Positions 4,352 to 58,480 of a stretch of DNA of 64,000 nt are shown here, piece by piece (position 1 is the first letter of the stretch; each line of letters begins with the position of its first letter). The translations under genes were made by a program, and so were the position numbers. Source of the stretch: an uncultured Candidatus Saccharibacteria bacterium (GTDB taxonomy: Bacteria > Patescibacteriota > Saccharimonadia > Saccharimonadales > UBA7683); contig CAZWBG010000001.1 of the NCBI GenBank assembly GCA_964632215.1, forward strand, positions 174,589 through 238,588, in the 5' to 3' direction. Under the pieces are notes generated by a model. It did not search any database, was not told the origin of the DNA, and saw only the letters and a program-made list of their open reading frames with translations.

Positions 4352-4750
4352 CTAACGTTTAGAGAACTGTTCTTTACGACGTGCACCCTTAAGACCAGGC
4401 TTCTTACGCTCTTTCTCACGTGGATCACGCTTGAGCAGGCGATTCTTCTTAAGAGTTGATCGTAGATCGTCGTCTAGAGCACTCAACGCTTTGGCGATAG
4501 CAAGTTTACTCGCACCAATTTGTGAATGATGACCACCACCCTCAACCTTAAGGCTGATGTCAAAAGATTCAGTCTTCTGTAAAAGTCGCAGTGGCTCAGT
4601 TAGCTCAAACAAAAATGCTTCGTTATTGCTTAAATAGTCGGCTGCTGGTTGGTCATTCATGGTGATAATACCCTTACCACTTACTAAACGAGCTCGTGCA
4701 GTAGCGCTCTTACGACGGCCCAATCCGTAGAAATATTCATTCTTAGGCAT
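4352..4750 (-). CDS. rpsI: 30S ribosomal protein S9
   Basis: GLGRRKSATARARL and C-terminal KEQFSKR. Follows rplM. Confidence 0.97.
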   Translation of the reverse strand: MPKNEYFYGLGRRKSATARARLVSGKGIITMNDQPAADYLSNNEAFLFELTEPLRLLQKTESFDISLKVEGGGHHSQIGASKLAIAKALSALDDDLRSTLKKNRLLKRDPREKERKKPGLKGARRKEQFSKR

Positions 4751-9906: not shown

Positions 9907-10374
9907 TTAAGAAATAGTTTCTTTTGGTGCTCGCTGTGGAACCGTGGTAGCACTGAAGCTTCCGCCTGCTTTTTCGATTTCAACTACAGCGGATTTACTT
10001 GCGCCCTGCACTTTGATGTCGTAAGCCTTAGCTACAGCACCACGTGTAATGATCTTAGTTGCGTGGTAAGGATCACCAATGAGACCTGCTTCAAATAAGC
10101 TAAAGTTGTCGATTGATTTACCTTTTACTAAAGCTAGGTTTTCAGTATAGACTACCTGTGATTTAGCTCGACTACTCTTAAAGCCCTTGAGCTTCGGTAT
10201 ACTTCGCATGAGTGGGTTTTGACCACCTTCAAATCCGGGTCGGAGTTTCTTTCCGGTTCGGGATTTTTGGCCCTTTGTACCACGACCAGCAGTCTTGCCT
10301 TTACCTGCGCTGATTCCTCGTCCTACGCGAGTCTTAGATTTCTTCTTCTCTACATTCAATTCATGAAATTTCAT
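9907..10374 (-). CDS. rplO: 50S ribosomal protein L15
   Basis: GRGISAGKGKTAGRGTKGQKSR. Confidence 0.97.
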   Translation of the reverse strand: MKFHELNVEKKKSKTRVGRGISAGKGKTAGRGTKGQKSRTGKKLRPGFEGGQNPLMRSIPKLKGFKSSRAKSQVVYTENLALVKGKSIDNFSLFEAGLIGDPYHATKIITRGAVAKAYDIKVQGASKSAVVEIEKAGGSFSATTVPQRAPKETIS

Positions 10375-33797: not shown

Positions 33798-34382
33798 TTA
33801 TTTAGTGGATTTGGTGATAATTTTATCTACCAAGCCGTAATCAACTGATTCTTTAGCAGTCATCCAGTAGTCACGGTCAACGTCTCTTTCGATCTTTTTT
33901 AGTGTTTGCCCAGTATTTTTAGCTAGTATTTCATTTAAGTGATGCTTTAGAGCCAGGCCTTCTTTCAAATCAATCTCCATATCGGTAATTCTACCCTGTG
34001 TACCAGAAGAAGGTTGATGAATCATCGTCTTGCTGTTGGGCAGTACGAAGCGCTTGCCCTTGGCACCCGAGCTCAGTAAAAAGGCTCCCATACTGGCCTG
34101 CAAACCAATGCCAATTGTTTGCACGTCGCATGAAAGATACTGCATAGTGTCATAGATTGCCAAGCCGTCATATACATGACCGCCAGGGCTATTAATATAA
34201 AAGTAAATATCTTTTTTGGCATCATCGCTTTGTAAGAAAAGTAGCTGCGCCACGATTAAACCAGCGGTATGCTCGTTTACTTCGTCATGCAAAAAGATAA
34301 TGCGGTCACGTAGCAGACGGCTATAGATGTCGAAGGCGCGTTCTCCTTGTCCGGATGGTTCAATAACGGTTGGTACTAACAT
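33798..34382 (-). CDS. clpP: ATP-dependent Clp protease proteolytic subunit
   Basis: [18 protein letters not shown], active-site [11 protein letters not shown] and MIHQP. Confidence 0.97.
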
Positions 34383-34400
34383 GACCTTAGTGTAGTACGA

Positions 34401-34427
34401 TTAGCAGTCCTGCGTCAAGAGTGCTAA
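34401..34427 (-). promoter_or_regulatory. CIRCE-like HrcA operator overlapping the clpP promoter
   Basis: TTAGCAGTC-N9-GAGTGCTAA, which is 17 of 18 arm positions against the consensus TTAGCACTC-N9-GAGTGCTAA. On the minus strand the spacer begins with the -35-like TTGACG. Confidence 0.75.
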
Positions 34428-34434
34428 ATTAGAC

Positions 34435-34788
34435 TTAAGAAGCTTGCTGATGGGGCAAGTCAGTTGGTTTTGACATCACCGAAAGTGTAGTCTCGGAGGA
34501 GGTCTTAAGAAGCTCGGGCTGCTGTGAGTCATGACGTCTGAATGATGCAAGATACTGAGCTTCACTGGCTGCCACTGTTATAAATCCAATACCAGCTACT
34601 ATCAAACCAGGAACTGCAAGGTGCTGTTCGGGGCTCGCCGTAGGATCCACGTACATCATAACTCCTGTCAGAATACCTGTACCGCCATATGCGATTCGGT
34701 CCATGCATTGTTGTCTACGTTTCTCGTATCGCTCTACAACCGTAAGCTCTGGTTTTACCACTTTTGGCTTTCGGTGTAGATATTTCAT
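34435..34788 (-). CDS. Hypothetical membrane protein (117 aa) between tig and clpP
   Basis: Two hydrophobic segments (GILTGVMMYV, GLIVAGIGFITVAA). Confidence 0.5.
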   Translation of the reverse strand: MKYLHRKPKVVKPELTVVERYEKRRQQCMDRIAYGGTGILTGVMMYVDPTASPEQHLAVPGLIVAGIGFITVAASEAQYLASFRRHDSQQPELLKTSSETTLSVMSKPTDLPHQQAS

Positions 34789-34790
34789 GA

Positions 34791-36071
34791 TTAGTTTGTC
34801 GCGATTTGCAGAAGGCGGTCTACAGTTTTCTCGGTGAGAAGTCGTGAGACAACTTCTCGGCGCATTTCTGGCTGCTCAAACTCCCCAGCTGATTGCTGGT
34901 ACTGCTGCTTGTATAAGCTAATTCTACTCTCAAGCTCTTCTTGGCTAACCTGAAGTTTTTCTTTCTCAGCGATTTCAGCCAGCACGAGACCCACACCAAC
35001 TCGACGTTGAGCTTGGGGAAGAAGTTCTTTCTCCCTCCAACTCCCCTCGTTCTCGTAGCCTTCTTGCTTAAGATATTCGGCAAGTGTAATTCCTCGATAC
35101 GTCAGGTTCTGCTGAAAATCGTGCTCCAGCATTGCTACCTGATCAGTAATCAAAACCTCTGGTAGTGGCACAGTTGAGTTCTTAACAATTTCTTCAACAA
35201 TCTCGTCTTTAATCTTAGCCTCTGCCTCAGAAGTCTTTTGCTCAGTTAATTGTGCTTTAATATCCTTTTTAAGATCAGCCAATGTTTTAAATGGTCCTAC
35301 TGTCGTGGCAAAGGCGTCATCAGCTTTTGGCAAAACTGATTCTTGCACTTTTTTCACCTCAACCTTAAATGTGATCTTGGTACCTGCAAGATTTTTGGCA
35401 TGATAGTCTTTCGGAAAGGCAAGTTCTAACTCTTTTTTATCCCCTGCTCTGAGGCCAACAAGACCTTCTTCGAAGCCTGGTATAAAAGTCTTACTACCTA
35501 GCGTCAGTGCATAATCTGTACCGCTCGCGCCTGCCACTGCTTCGCCTTTTGTATTCTCACCAGTAAAGTCGACGACTACCTCGTCGCCCTTACTAGCCGT
35601 ACGAGTAACATCCTTCTTCGTGGCAACGCGAGTACGCAGGTTCGTAATAACATCGTCCACTTCTTTAGCTGGCACTGTTATGACAGAGATTTGCTTCTTA
35701 ATCTTTGTGTAATCGGCTAGCTTAATTATTGGCATAACGCCAATCTTGGCAGTAAATTCGAGCTCAGTATAAGGTGTATATTTACGAATTTCGATTTCAG
35801 GATTACCTAGCGGACGGAGTTCTTCTTTTGTCACAGCATCAGGGTAAGCTGCTTCAAGGGCGTCTTGTAGAATCTCGGCTTGTAACTGGTTGGCATCTAT
35901 CTGTTTTTCGGCTACTGCTAGTGGTGCTTTGCCTGGTCGAAAACCAGGAGCTTTAATAGTTTTAGCAAGCTTAGCCAAAGTCTTTTGCTTAACAGCCTGT
36001 AAAGCTTTTTCATCTACGGTAATAGTAAGTAGTACTTCTGTCTCGGAATTATTTTTTCGGGTTACATTCAT
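34791..36071 (-). CDS. tig: Trigger factor
   Basis: The N-terminal ribosome-binding region contains GFRPGKAP. The ORF-track start at 36080 is a TTG, and the ATG at 36071 (MNVTRK) is preferred. TGcGATAAT sits 8 nt upstream. Confidence 0.93.
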   Translation of the reverse strand: MNVTRKNNSETEVLLTITVDEKALQAVKQKTLAKLAKTIKAPGFRPGKAPLAVAEKQIDANQLQAEILQDALEAAYPDAVTKEELRPLGNPEIEIRKYTPYTELEFTAKIGVMPIIKLADYTKIKKQISVITVPAKEVDDVITNLRTRVATKKDVTRTASKGDEVVVDFTGENTKGEAVAGASGTDYALTLGSKTFIPGFEEGLVGLRAGDKKELELAFPKDYHAKNLAGTKITFKVEVKKVQESVLPKADDAFATTVGPFKTLADLKKDIKAQLTEQKTSEAEAKIKDEIVEEIVKNSTVPLPEVLITDQVAMLEHDFQQNLTYRGITLAEYLKQEGYENEGSWREKELLPQAQRRVGVGLVLAEIAEKEKLQVSQEELESRISLYKQQYQQSAGEFEQPEMRREVVSRLLTEKTVDRLLQIATN

Positions 36072-36136
36072 AACTGCCAATTATCGCACAACAGATCAAA
36101 AAATGCGAGCTTAACCATCATCTCGGTAAACTACGA

Positions 36137-54084: not shown

Positions 54085-56583
54085 CTAGCCAAGTACAGGT
54101 GTGGCAGAGGTAGTACTAAAGATTAGTTCATCTTTTTTAGTGTTCACCACAATCACATTATGGTCTTTGTACGTACCTTTTAGTAGATTTTCTGCCAAAT
54201 AATCCTCAACTTCGTCCTGCAGTACTCGCCGCAAGCTTCTGACACCTGTTTGAGCGTTATAGCCCTTGTTTAGTAGCCATTTTTTAGCATTTACGTGAAT
54301 CTGTAAAGACAGTTTGTGCTGAGCTATAAGTCGGTCATTTAACTCAGCTATCTGTAGATCTAGCACCTTACGTGCCTCAGCCGTCGTTAACGCTCGGAAG
54401 ACGACGATCTTGTCTATACGGTTAATGAGCTCTGGGCGCATCGTTTCCTTTAGCTCTTCCATCACGCGTTCTTTATTGTGCTCGTGTAGTTCGTCTAGAT
54501 CATTCAGCTCGCTCTTGCTCTCCGCTCTAAATCCCATCACCGATTCACGCCTAAGGCTATCAGCACCCACATTACCAGTCATAATAATAACGGTATTGGT
54601 AAAATCAACCTGGCGACCCTTAGCGTCAGTTAAAATACCATCTTCAAGGATTTGCAGCAGCATATTAAAGATATCGGGGTGAGCTTTTTCAATCTCGTCT
54701 AAAAGAATTAAGCTATACGGGTTACGTCTTACTTTATCTGTTAATTGCCCACCTTCGTCATAACCTACGTAGCCCGCAGGCGCACCGACAAGCCGAGAGG
54801 CCGTGTGACGCTCACTAAATTCACTCATATCAATTTTAATCAGCGAGTCTTCACGTTCATATAATTCACGAGCCAGAACACGAGCTAATTCAGTTTTACC
54901 AACACCCGTTGGACCCAGGAAGATGAAAGAGCCAATTGGCCGACGGCGATCGCTAATTCCCGAACGATTACGGCGAATAGCTCGGGCTACCGTATTAAGA
55001 GCTTCGGTCTGCCCAATAACTGAACGGGCCAACTGCTTCTCTAGCGCGAGCAAGTAACCAGCTTCCCGCTTCAAAATACGCTGCGTCGGTATTCCGGTAA
55101 TCAGCGAGACAGTACTCGCTAAATCTTGCTCAGTCATCATTAATTTGGTGCGAGTTTTATGACGCTTCTTCTCAAGCTGCGTATCAAGCTCAGCCAACTT
55201 TACCTTATGACGAGCTGCAGCTTCAAAATTCTCATGGCCAACTGCTTCTTCCATACGTTGGCGAGTGAGCTTAATTTCTTTAAGTAGTTGACGCTGAGAT
55301 TGAGGCACCTTAGCCCGCTCTACTCGAATATGTGCAGCTGTTTCATCTAATAAGTCGAGTGCTTTGTCTGGCATAAAACGCTCGTTCATATAGCGGTCAC
55401 TCAGGTACACGGTTTTTTCCACGACTTCATCTTCAATCTTAATATTATGATGAAGTTCATAACTTGGCTTTAAGCCTTTTAGTATCTCGACAGTCTCCTG
55501 AATACTCGGAGGGTGAACGTGAACTGTCTGGAAACGCCTATCTAACGCTGCATCTTTTTCAATGCTTTTCTGATACTCGTCAATAGTCGTAGCACCAATA
55601 ACACGCATAGTTCCACGGGCCAAGACTGGTTTTAGAATATTAGCAGCATCTAAAGCACCTTCGGCAGCTCCAGCACCAACTAGTAAGTGAATTTCATCAA
55701 TAAATACAATAACTCTGTCATCATGTGCAACCTCCTGCATAATTGCCTTGAGTCGTTCTTCAAACTCACCGCGATATTTTGTACCAGCAATCATACCCGC
55801 AAGATCAAGCATAATCACTCGTTTATCGAGTAAGTTCTCAGGAACCTTTTCAGCAACAATATGCTGGGCTAAACCTTCAACTATGGCAGTCTTACCAACA
55901 CCGGGTTCACCGATTAAAATAGGGTTATTTTTGGTACGTCGAGAAAGAATCGTAATCACGCGCTGCAACTCTTTGCGCCGCCCGATAACAGGGTCAAGCC
56001 TACCTTTTTTTGCTTCTTCCGTTAAGTCTGTACCGAAGTAGTCAAGCGCACTTTTACCTGATTTGCTCTTTTGCTGGGTTGCTTGCGTAGAACCATCAGC
56101 TTCACCTTCATACTCAAAGCGTTGTTGGTTTAAATACGTCTCTAACTCAACCGTTAATTCTTCAACATTAATATTCATGTCACGCAGGAGCACATTCGCT
56201 CGAGCATTCTTTTGAATCAAAATACTATAGAGAATATGCTCAGTACCACAATATTCCTGCTGGAATTCTCGTGCGATCTCCCAACTGGTTCGTAGTGTTA
56301 ACTTTGCAGCTTCACTCAGGCCCTTGCTGTTGCCAATACTTATAACGAGTGTTTTAGGTGTTAATTTCAAAGCCGTGCGTGCTCGATCGAGCGTTACGCC
56401 AGAAGTTTCGAGCAACTTAGCACCGATAGAGGAGTCTTGACTAAGAACACCTAATAAGATGTGTTCTGTACCGATATACGAGCTACCCAGGTTACGCGAA
56501 ATGGTTTCAGCCTGCTGCAAACTGGACCGAGCATTTTCAGTCAGTCGGTTGAGAAACTCGTTAAAATCACGACTTGTCTGCAT
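54085..56583 (-). CDS. clpC: ATP-dependent Clp protease ATP-binding subunit ClpC
   Basis: Clp_N repeats, two AAA+ modules ([16 protein letters not shown]), and a UVR-like linker. Confidence 0.96.
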
Positions 56584-56632: not shown

Positions 56633-56675
56633 ATTATACTAATTTAGCACTCCTCATACAAGAGTGCTAAATTAG
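56633..56675 (-). promoter_or_regulatory. Perfect CIRCE (HrcA operator) embedded in the clpC promoter
   Basis: TTAGCACTC (56644-56652), N9, GAGTGCTAA (56662-56670), extended to a 14-bp perfect inverted repeat at 56639-56675. The minus strand reads CTAATTTAGCACTC-TTGTATGAG-GAGTGCTAAATTAG-TATAAT, giving -35 TTGTAT, a 17-nt spacer and -10 TATAAT. Confidence 0.85.
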
Positions 56676-56676
56676 A

Positions 56677-57207
56677 TCAATCATCAAAGTCTGGTTCGGC
56701 CAGGAACTTCGCTGGTGACCTACGCTCGCCAGTCCACCCATCTCTGCTGTAGAAGTATTTGTCTTCAAGATAATCTCTTCTCAACCCGCCGAAGTTGCCG
56801 AGTATCCAGCCAGGAAAGTCGGCCTGATCAAAATAGCACATCGCCCTCTCTACATATTCTAGGCTTCCACCTTCGATAGACTCTTCTGCTAGATCATCGA
56901 GAGCAGATAAAAAGTTTAGGCTTCTTGCCTGAGGCCCAAGCCTATCACTGGCATCCTCATGCATCACCTGTAATACAACCGGCACAATATTGACATATAT
57001 TTCATCAGAAGCTTCGGATAGGGCAATTCTTAGAATTGATCGGTGCAGGTGTCCACCCCAGCTCTCAGCCAGCTCTGCCCAGACCCATTCCTCCTCTACC
57101 ACATCTCGCATAAAGTCGCGGCACTCGCCAACTGTTACGAAGTGTACTGGAGTTGAGTCTCTGTTTCGCCATATAGATGAGTCAAACTCTGTGGCCGGGA
57201 TCTCCAT
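56677..57207 (-). CDS. Hypothetical protein (176 aa) co-oriented directly downstream of nusA
   Basis: The ORF-track start at 57243 overlaps nusA. ATG at 57207 lies 7 nt after the nusA TAA. No family recognised. Confidence 0.55.
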   Translation of the reverse strand: MEIPATEFDSSIWRNRDSTPVHFVTVGECRDFMRDVVEEEWVWAELAESWGGHLHRSILRIALSEASDEIYVNIVPVVLQVMHEDASDRLGPQARSLNFLSALDDLAEESIEGGSLEYVERAMCYFDQADFPGWILGNFGGLRRDYLEDKYFYSRDGWTGERRSPAKFLAEPDFDD

Positions 57208-57214
57208 ACAACTC

Positions 57215-58480
57215 TTATTCGCCGTGTTCTTCGATCGCTCCAAGTAAACCGGCTTCGACTTCGTCTCGACGCTTTAGCTTCTTAGGCTTTGTTGATACAG
57301 GCGCTGTTTTTACAGGGACCTTTTCTTTATTCTCTTCTTTTTCTTCCTTTACTACTTCAACCACAGGAGCCTCCTCTACAATTATTTCTTCAATTACTGT
57401 CTCTGTCGGAGCTTCAACAACCTCAGGCTTAGCAGCTGCTGATGTACCAGATTCGATATCTAGCTCATAACCAGTTAGCTTACTCGCAAGACGTACATTC
57501 TGTCCACCCTTACCAATAGCGATTGAAAGCTGACTCTGGTCCACTATGACACGAGCATGCTTCTGGTCGTTATTAAGTTCTACACGAATAACCTCGGTAG
57601 GAGAAAGAGCGTTCTTAATGTAAGTCGCAAGATCTTCAGCCCATGTAATGATGTCTATCTTTTCTTGGTCGCCAATTTCATTCATGACTGCTTGCACGCG
57701 AGTACCGTGCCCACCAACAAATGTACCAACTGGGTCTACGCCAGGTACGGTTGAGGCAACTGCGATCTTTGTACGCATACCAGCTTGTCGAGCAATGCCC
57801 TTTATTTCTACAGCACCACTTTCCATTTCTGGCACTTCCTGTCTGAAGAGGTATTCAATAAACTGTTCATTAGAACGTGAAAGTATCAGCTGCGGGCCTC
57901 GATTGCTGCGTTCTACATCTTTCAAGAAGACCTTCAAGCGAGCGCCTACGCCGTAATATTCACCCGGTATCTGCTCACTAGCAGGCAAGATACCACTTGC
58001 TTTACCAAGGTCGATACGCACAAGACGGCTTTCTACACGCTGGACCGTACCAACAATGACTGTACCAATTTTATCTTCATATTCAGTTAAGATAATTTCT
58101 CTCTCAGCCTCGCGTAGACGCTGTAAGATCACCTGCTTAGCAGTTTGTGCAGCAACACGGCCAAAAGTGGTAGGATGCTCTTCAATATCTATTACATCAC
58201 CCAGCTTGGCATCTTTCTTATATTTGCTAGCCTGTGAGACGGTCATTTGCTGTGCATCATTTTCAACATCTTCTACAACATCGTAGCTCGTGATGGCTGT
58301 TAGGTCGCCTGTATTAGAGTTAAGTGAAACAGCTACATTCTGCTCGCGCTCACCAAAGTCTTTACGGTAAGCTGCCGCAAGTGCCTGCTCTACAGCTTCG
58401 TGCACTACATCTTCCGGTAGGTTCTTCTCGTCTGCAATTTGCTTAATTGCCAAAATAAGTTGTTTGATTTGTAGTTCCAT
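57215..58480 (-). CDS. nusA: Transcription termination/antitermination factor NusA (with charged C-terminal tail)
   Basis: S1 and KH domains (GGQNVRLASKLTG) and an N-terminal RNAP-binding domain. Confidence 0.95.
   Translation of the reverse strand: MELQIKQLILAIKQIADEKNLPEDVVHEAVEQALAAAYRKDFGEREQNVAVSLNSNTGDLTAITSYDVVEDVENDAQQMTVSQASKYKKDAKLGDVIDIEEHPTTFGRVAAQTAKQVILQRLREAEREIILTEYEDKIGTVIVGTVQRVESRLVRIDLGKASGILPASEQIPGEYYGVGARLKVFLKDVERSNRGPQLILSRSNEQFIEYLFRQEVPEMESGAVEIKGIARQAGMRTKIAVASTVPGVDPVGTFVGGHGTRVQAVMNEIGDQEKIDIITWAEDLATYIKNALSPTEVIRVELNNDQKHARVIVDQSQLSIAIGKGGQNVRLASKLTGYELDIESGTSAAAKPEVVEAPTETVIEEIIVEEAPVVEVVKEEKEENKEKVPVKTAPVSTKPKKLKRRDEVEAGLLGAIEEHGE

Follow-up and report, generated by a model that had tools for sequence, protein, structure and literature searches.

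A likely HrcA operator within the clpP promoter of a Candidatus Saccharibacteria bacterium

The inverted repeat at positions 34401-34427 of the window, the whole 64-kb stretch of Saccharibacteria DNA analysed here, is very likely an operator for the repressor HrcA. It lies in a putative sigma-70-type promoter of clpP, which the bound repressor would keep blocked until protein-folding stress sets in, and the resulting clpP mRNA is probably leaderless. By sequence, spacing, position and conservation the element itself is a familiar one, CIRCE, and control of a protease by HrcA has precedents. What is new is the predicted extension of this control to clpP and clpC in this phylum, along with a short form of HrcA.

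The CIRCE consensus is an inverted repeat, TTAGCACTC-N9-GAGTGCTAA, to which HrcA binds and thereby represses transcription (PMC545781; PMC3842655). HrcA needs GroE for its activity, which it loses under heat or once unfolded proteins titrate GroE (PMC8533110; PMC7737663).

The CIRCE element and promoter upstream of clpP

The features of the clpP region of the window are the following.

33798-34382, minus strand: clpP, 194 aa (Pfam CLP_protease PF00574, E=1.5e-77)
34380-34382, minus strand: ATG start codon of clpP and predicted transcription start, the A at 34382 being the seventh nucleotide after the -10
34389-34394, minus strand: -10-like TACACT from the promoter scan, with 18 nt between it and the -35 and 6 nt between it and the clpP ATG
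34401-34427, minus strand: CIRCE inverted repeat, with left arm TTAGCACTC (34427-34419), spacer TTGACGCAG (34418-34410) and right arm GACTGCTAA (34409-34401)
34413-34418, minus strand: -35-like TTGACG from the promoter scan, the first six bases of the CIRCE spacer
34435-34788, minus strand: ORF of 117 aa between tig and the CIRCE, with its stop 7 nt before the CIRCE and its start 2 nt past the tig stop
34791-36080, minus strand: tig (trigger factor; Pfam Trigger_N, FKBP_C and Trigger_C), the conserved upstream neighbour of clpP

On the 3' side of clpP are found a GNAT acetyltransferase gene and rpoB. The 117-aa ORF has no Pfam match and forms a singleton protein cluster. It is missing from related loci, where tig ends just 5' of the CIRCE.

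On the plus strand, 34401-34427 reads TTAGCAGTC-CTGCGTCAA-GAGTGCTAA. This is one mismatch from TTAGCACTC-N9-GAGTGCTAA, or agreement at 17 of 18 arm positions. The sole deviating arm base, a C at position 34407 on the gene strand, counts against the reading as an operator. The spacer has exactly 9 nt, and CIRCE variants with spacers of 7, 8, 10 or 11 nt are absent from the 64-kb window. The element takes up most of the 52-nt gap 5' of clpP and ends 18 nt before the ATG. Read on the gene strand, the gap consists of gtctaat, TTAGCACTC, TTGACGCAG, GACTGCTAA, TCGTAC, TACACT (34394-34389) and AAGGTC, followed by ATG (34382-34380).

The original prediction had described a CIRCE-like repeat with one arm mismatch, set out its layout on the clpP strand, and named a -35-like TTGACG at the start of the spacer and a -10-like TACACT 6 nt before the ATG. 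A motif scan of the window and a reading of the sequence bear out the match at 17 of 18 positions, and the layout of repeat, TACACT and ATG agrees to the base. Sequence and promoter scan concur on both hexamers, and the Pfam match confirms that the gene behind the element is clpP. The site has the arms and the 9-nt spacer of a CIRCE and a promoter position at a proteostasis gene, and it is conserved at orthologous positions in other genomes.

A second CIRCE is located upstream of clpC.

54085-56583, minus strand: clpC, encoding an 832-aa ClpC-type ATPase (Pfam Clp_N, two AAA modules, ClpB_D2-small)
56638-56633, minus strand: perfect -10 TATAAT, 17 nt after the -35
56644-56670, minus strand: second CIRCE, perfect, TTAGCACTC-TTGTATGAG-GAGTGCTAA-ATTAG-TATAAT
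56661-56656, minus strand: -35 TTGTAT, opening the CIRCE spacer

It had been proposed that the two Clp genes share one operator-in-promoter design, and they do: both spacers open with a -35-like hexamer, and a -10 follows 17-18 nt on. The clpC CIRCE is predicted to belong to the same regulon as the clpP CIRCE. The gene order nusA-CIRCE-clpC-radA is repeated in the metagenomic locus L093, and the truncated loci L144 and L162 keep nusA beside the CIRCE and the start of clpC.

Several smaller features surround the two elements. In the window, clpC differs from clpP in having a 49-nt leader, which contains AGGAG. An ORF of 188 aa without a Pfam match (56677-57243, minus strand) is situated between nusA and the clpC CIRCE and stops 6 nt short of the operator; for this region, a shorter product of 144 aa is called on Logan contigs. 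Both window CIRCEs have the same 6-nt 5' flank, TCTAAT, directly before TTAGCACTCTTG (34428-34433 and 56671-56676, minus strand). The CIRCE flanks in other genomes are A/T-rich and not identical to TCTAAT. For the shared flank, an extended contact, an UP-like element and coincidence are all conceivable.

The elements at clpP and clpC are the only sites in the 64 kb with three or fewer mismatches to CIRCE. The next-best sites have at least 5 mismatches, which is the background level (about 17 sites with six or fewer mismatches in shuffled sequence). It is extremely unlikely that the clpP repeat arose as a palindrome by chance, or that it serves as operator of a regulator other than HrcA. Dinucleotide-preserving shuffles (n=100) give a mean of 0.03 sites with three or fewer mismatches, and none of the 100 reaches two such sites. 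Moreover, the motif is the exact HrcA consensus.

Among other regulators, CtsR is the usual one for clpP and clpC in Firmicutes, where it acts through a tandem heptad box. In the window, the CtsR box RGTCADNNANRGTCADN has only two matches with one mismatch, at 4651 and 46207, both away from clpP and clpC. Since no CtsR-box-like site is found near these genes, HrcA appears to act alone at the clp genes of the window.

The putative promoter of clpP was found independently of the repeat. A promoter scan returned TTGACG-18-TACACT (34418-34389, minus strand), which matches at 9 of 12 positions. Neither TACACT nor the 18-nt spacing is optimal, and this counts against the promoter reading. In a 4.6-kb region, 10 promoter-like hexamer pairs were found against 7.5 expected. 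Thus, the pair is not significant alone, and its significance comes from the conservation of the arrangement in other genomes.

Because the -10 ends 6 nt before the ATG, the clpP mRNA is probably leaderless, with its 5' end at the A of the ATG or adjacent to it. Two further observations fit such a start. No core Shine-Dalgarno sequence is present 5' of clpP, as compared with its presence at 36 of 62 window genes. In addition, a distance of 6-9 nt from the -10 to the ATG recurs in other clpP loci (L001, L006, L008, L112, L131 and L158), and likewise in many metagenomic genes that follow the same combination of operator and promoter (hrcA, dnaJ, clpC and clpP; among L086-L165). This recurrence suggests that leaderless transcripts may be widespread for stress genes in the lineages that have the module.

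These elements suggest a mechanism for the control of clpP. The left half-site would lie just 5' of the -35, the -35 would form the first six bases of the spacer, and the right half-site would fall between the -35 and the -10. Since the half-sites bracket the -35 and the right one fills the promoter spacer, a bound dimer should exclude RNA polymerase. In the absence of stress, GroEL/ES would hold an HrcA dimer in its active state, and this dimer, lying over the -35 region, would shut the polymerase out; it could additionally stop read-through from tig. Under stress, unfolded proteins would titrate GroEL/ES, or heat would directly inactivate HrcA, and the repressor would leave. clpP would then be transcribed, probably from the A of the ATG and without a leader. 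As a speculation, clpP might be less tightly repressed than clpC owing to the mismatch at C34407. HrcA binding at the clpP site, use of the promoter, the start site, dependence on GroEL and induction by heat are all predictions from sequence.

Conservation upstream of clpP in other genomes

Conservation was assessed in 80 clpP loci, which were collected by ClpP protein similarity with one genome per species, and without use of the motif for retrieval. Five of these are Saccharibacteria-type loci. Four (L002, L003, L006 and L008) are titled Candidatus Saccharibacteria, and L001, which is titled only "bacterium", shares with the window the clpP-rpoB synteny and 75% ClpP identity. Among species-representative genomes these five give the best matches to the window ClpP, with 66-75% identity. 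The other 75 loci come from Clostridia, Lachnospiraceae, Oscillospiraceae, a few Proteobacteria and Spirochaetota.

In all five Saccharibacteria-type loci, clpP is directly preceded by a CIRCE with 0-2 mismatches. In the 75 loci of other phyla, no CIRCE with four or fewer mismatches occurs within 400 nt 5' of clpP. The hypergeometric probability of such a split is about 4e-8, which also speaks against a chance palindrome. The original prediction had argued that the shared arrangement is functional rather than coincidental, and that it would be refuted were related genomes to lack the motif upstream of clpP. The motif is present in 5/5 Saccharibacteria-type loci and 0/75 others, and this comparative evidence supports the claim.

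The promoter hexamers are conserved along with the operator.

L001: -35 TTGACG, gap 18, -10 TATACT
L002: -35 TTGACT, gap 18, -10 TATACT
L003: -35 TTGACC, gap 17, -10 TATCAT
L006 and L008: -35 TGGACA, gap 17, -10 TATCAT

All five independent loci have a -35-like hexamer in the CIRCE spacer or overlapping it, in the same or a nearby register, and a TAnnnT sequence 17-18 nt on.

The gene order hisS-tig-CIRCE-clpP-rpoB is repeated in L002, L003, L112, L131 and L158. The loci L006 (6001-9180) and L008 (286-3465) differ. There, clpP is convergent with tig-hisS rather than 3' of tig, and the CIRCE is still present. Both loci also carry a symmetric arm change, TTGGCACTC...GAGTGCCAA, which preserves the palindrome. 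Because L006 and L008 keep the CIRCE without tig upstream, the element travels with clpP. Together with the symmetric arm change, this points to a protein operator attached to clpP.

The conserved neighbourhood suggests another way in which HrcA might act. In this model, tig, the 117-aa ORF and clpP form one operon, HrcA on the CIRCE serves mainly as a roadblock to read-through from the tig promoter, and the hexamers are incidental. A precedent is found in Mycoplasma pneumoniae, where lon is transcribed from the trigger-factor promoter and a CIRCE is located just upstream of lon (PMC7737663). In the window, the terminator scan predicts nothing on the minus strand between tig and clpP, the genes lie close together with a gap of only 52 nt, and the tig-clpP order is a conserved one. 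The 117-aa ORF is a possible source of read-through transcription into clpP. However, the position of the -35 and -10 relative to the CIRCE is constant in all five independent loci, and L006 and L008 retain the module though their clpP is not 3' of tig. Furthermore, clpP has no Shine-Dalgarno sequence, which an internal cistron would need and a leaderless mRNA would not. A role mainly as a roadblock is therefore unlikely. Roadblock and promoter block are nonetheless compatible, and a roadblock may well contribute to control of clpP.

Alternately, the repeat might act as RNA. It would then form a hairpin in the transcript of tig and the 117-aa ORF, as a terminator, a processing site or a stability element, and would not be a protein operator at all. 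The repeat does begin 7 nt past a stop codon, a stem-loop of -11.5 kcal/mol is possible, and the symmetric substitutions in L006 and L008 would maintain pairing as well as a palindrome. Yet the fold is no better than that of shuffled sequences (z = -1.3), 19 of 200 of which are equally stable. No T-run follows the repeat, and the terminator scan lists nothing on the minus strand there, so that the repeat does not qualify as an intrinsic terminator. Across distant genomes the sequence of the arms is conserved, not just their pairing, and the same sequence occurs 5' of hrcA, dnaK, dnaJ and groES without a common upstream gene. An RNA hairpin is thus a very improbable explanation.

The module in metagenomes and a short HrcA

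The combination of operator and promoter can be described as a module. JGI metagenome contigs were scanned for TTAGCACTC-TTGnnnnnn-GAGTGCTAA-N5-6-TAnnnT, and at least 120 stretches match this pattern. Of the 80 loci listed, 76 have enough downstream sequence to identify the next gene, and the counts describe a sample. In 71 of the 76, the next gene is a proteostasis gene.

hrcA: 25 loci
dnaK: 15 loci
clpC-type: 11 loci
dnaJ: 10 loci
clpP: 4 loci
groES: 2 loci
hsp20: 2 loci
clpB: 2 loci

Representatives of the downstream gene families were confirmed by Pfam. The canonical targets of HrcA, namely hrcA, dnaK, dnaJ and groES, are thus all preceded by the module among the 76 listed loci. The metagenomic clpP and clpC loci have the synteny of the window, and their proteins are 57-71% identical to those of the window. 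The four metagenomic clpP loci were chosen by the pattern itself and are not independent evidence for the architecture, as the five genome loci are.

One difficulty for an HrcA operator is that hrcA is not encoded nearby. No hrcA was found in the 64-kb window (all ORFs of at least 120 aa) or in an extension of about 5 kb, out of a genome of about 690 kb. The extension holds genes for a T2SSE ATPase, a malic enzyme and a SpoU methylase. With Ruminococcus HrcA as the protein query, only Firmicutes-type HrcA was among the matches, and the synteny of metagenomic hrcA genes with the window gave no usable anchor for the position of hrcA in this genome. The absence from the window and its extension would suit a regulator other than HrcA, were it not that 25 of the 76 listed metagenomic modules precede hrcA, the classic signature of autoregulation.

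The HrcA proteins encoded behind these modules are short, at about 235 aa. Most have 217-245 aa, and two have 272 and 295, as compared with about 340-370. An example is found in L155, where hrcA lies just 3' of a CIRCE at 10164-10201 on the minus strand; others are in L088, L094, L118, L120, L130, L133, L153 and L161. The L155 protein matches HrcA_DNA-bdg (PF03444, E=7.8e-7) and, at profile positions 106-215 only, the second half of HrcA (PF01628, E=8e-19). A further match is to the winged-helix DNA-binding domain of T. maritima HrcA (PDB 1STZ, E=2.9e-16). With a winged helix and an HrcA C-terminal domain, it has both parts that define the family.

In a MAFFT alignment with full-length HrcA, about 100 residues are cleanly deleted in a single internal block (L025 residues ~150-250), and the winged helix and the C-terminal part are retained. 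We presume that the missing segment may correspond to the inserted dimerising domain of T. maritima HrcA (1STZ; Liu et al. 2005). The lack of these roughly 100 internal residues counts against the reading of the CIRCE as an HrcA operator.

Relatives of the L155 protein, 72-78% identical, are listed at NCBI under "[Candidatus Saccharibacteria bacterium]" or "[Patescibacteria group bacterium]", and JGI names them "heat-inducible transcriptional repressor". Among the canonical targets, it is through this hrcA group of L155 that the module is assigned to Saccharibacteria.

Given the matches to Pfam and 1STZ, the named relatives and the position of hrcA behind the same module, the repressor family is present in the phylum, and is predicted to be autoregulated through the module that it shares with the classical targets. 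From its presence in the phylum we infer that HrcA is present in this organism too. The titration model requires GroES and GroEL, and both are annotated in TM7x, a cultured Saccharibacterium. With a CIRCE at clpP and a perfect one at clpC, Saccharibacteria would have their chaperones and their Clp protease in one regulon.

A broader reading is slightly favoured. According to it, a truncated HrcA in Saccharibacteria, and probably widely in Patescibacteria/CPR, would control essentially the whole proteostasis network (hrcA, dnaK, dnaJ, groES, hsp20, clpB, clpC and clpP). Control would be exerted through one stereotyped module, with the -35 in the CIRCE spacer and many leaderless transcripts, and HrcA would replace CtsR and sigma-32 in these minimal genomes. 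The clpP gene of the window would be one instance.

Known systems and wider meaning

The closest known system is the class I HrcA/CIRCE regulon of dnaK and groE in Bacillus subtilis. The operator and its spacing, TTAGCACTC-N9-GAGTGCTAA, are identical (PMC545781; PMC3842655). The repressor belongs to the same family in the phylum (PF01628, PF03444), and related metagenomic contigs have the module at hrcA, dnaK, dnaJ and groES. There are also differences. The targets in the window are clpP and clpC rather than a chaperone operon, the -35 is inside the operator spacer with an mRNA that is probably leaderless, and the HrcA of Saccharibacteria is about 100 residues shorter. In published surveys, groESL is the HrcA regulon's sole constant member (PMC545781).

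Another likeness is to the CIRCE at lon in Mycoplasma pneumoniae. This organism also has a small genome, in which one repressor is placed over both chaperones and an ATP-dependent protease, and the element is located between the genes for trigger factor and the protease (PMC7737663). There, however, the protease is Lon and the promoter is taken to be that of tig, whereas the protease of the window, ClpP, has a conserved -35 and -10 of its own around the operator.

For clpP itself, a precedent for control through HrcA and CIRCE is Streptococcus salivarius, where clpP is described as under dual control by CtsR and HrcA (Chastanet and Msadek 2003, J Bacteriol 185:683, as cited in PMC3842655). That bacterium belongs to another phylum, and the cited account has CtsR as co-regulator, in contrast to the window, with no CtsR-box-like site near clpP or clpC.

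A full-text literature search returned no relevant paper pairing HrcA/CIRCE with Saccharibacteria, Patescibacteria, TM7 or CPR, and the TM7x transcriptome papers include no heat-shock condition. To our knowledge, almost nothing is known of transcriptional regulation in the candidate phyla radiation. The clpP site and its conserved relatives offer a concrete, testable regulon for these ultra-small episymbionts. One repressor with one operator-in-promoter design would couple the chaperones with the Clp degradation machinery, and the module predicts leaderless expression of a core protease. It could also provide a ready-made stress-inducible promoter and operator for genetic tools in cultivated Saccharibacteria. 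The wider pattern combines a stereotyped module and frequent leaderless starts with a short HrcA and a regulon of chaperones and Clp proteins, and may merit its own study.

The ATPases found behind the module are not all alike. Some of the ClpC/ClpB-type proteins, such as those of L096 and L141, align to the window ClpC only from residue ~164, and appear to be without a Clp_N domain. L141 is an 820-kb contig, and its rpoB is 68% identical to that of the window.
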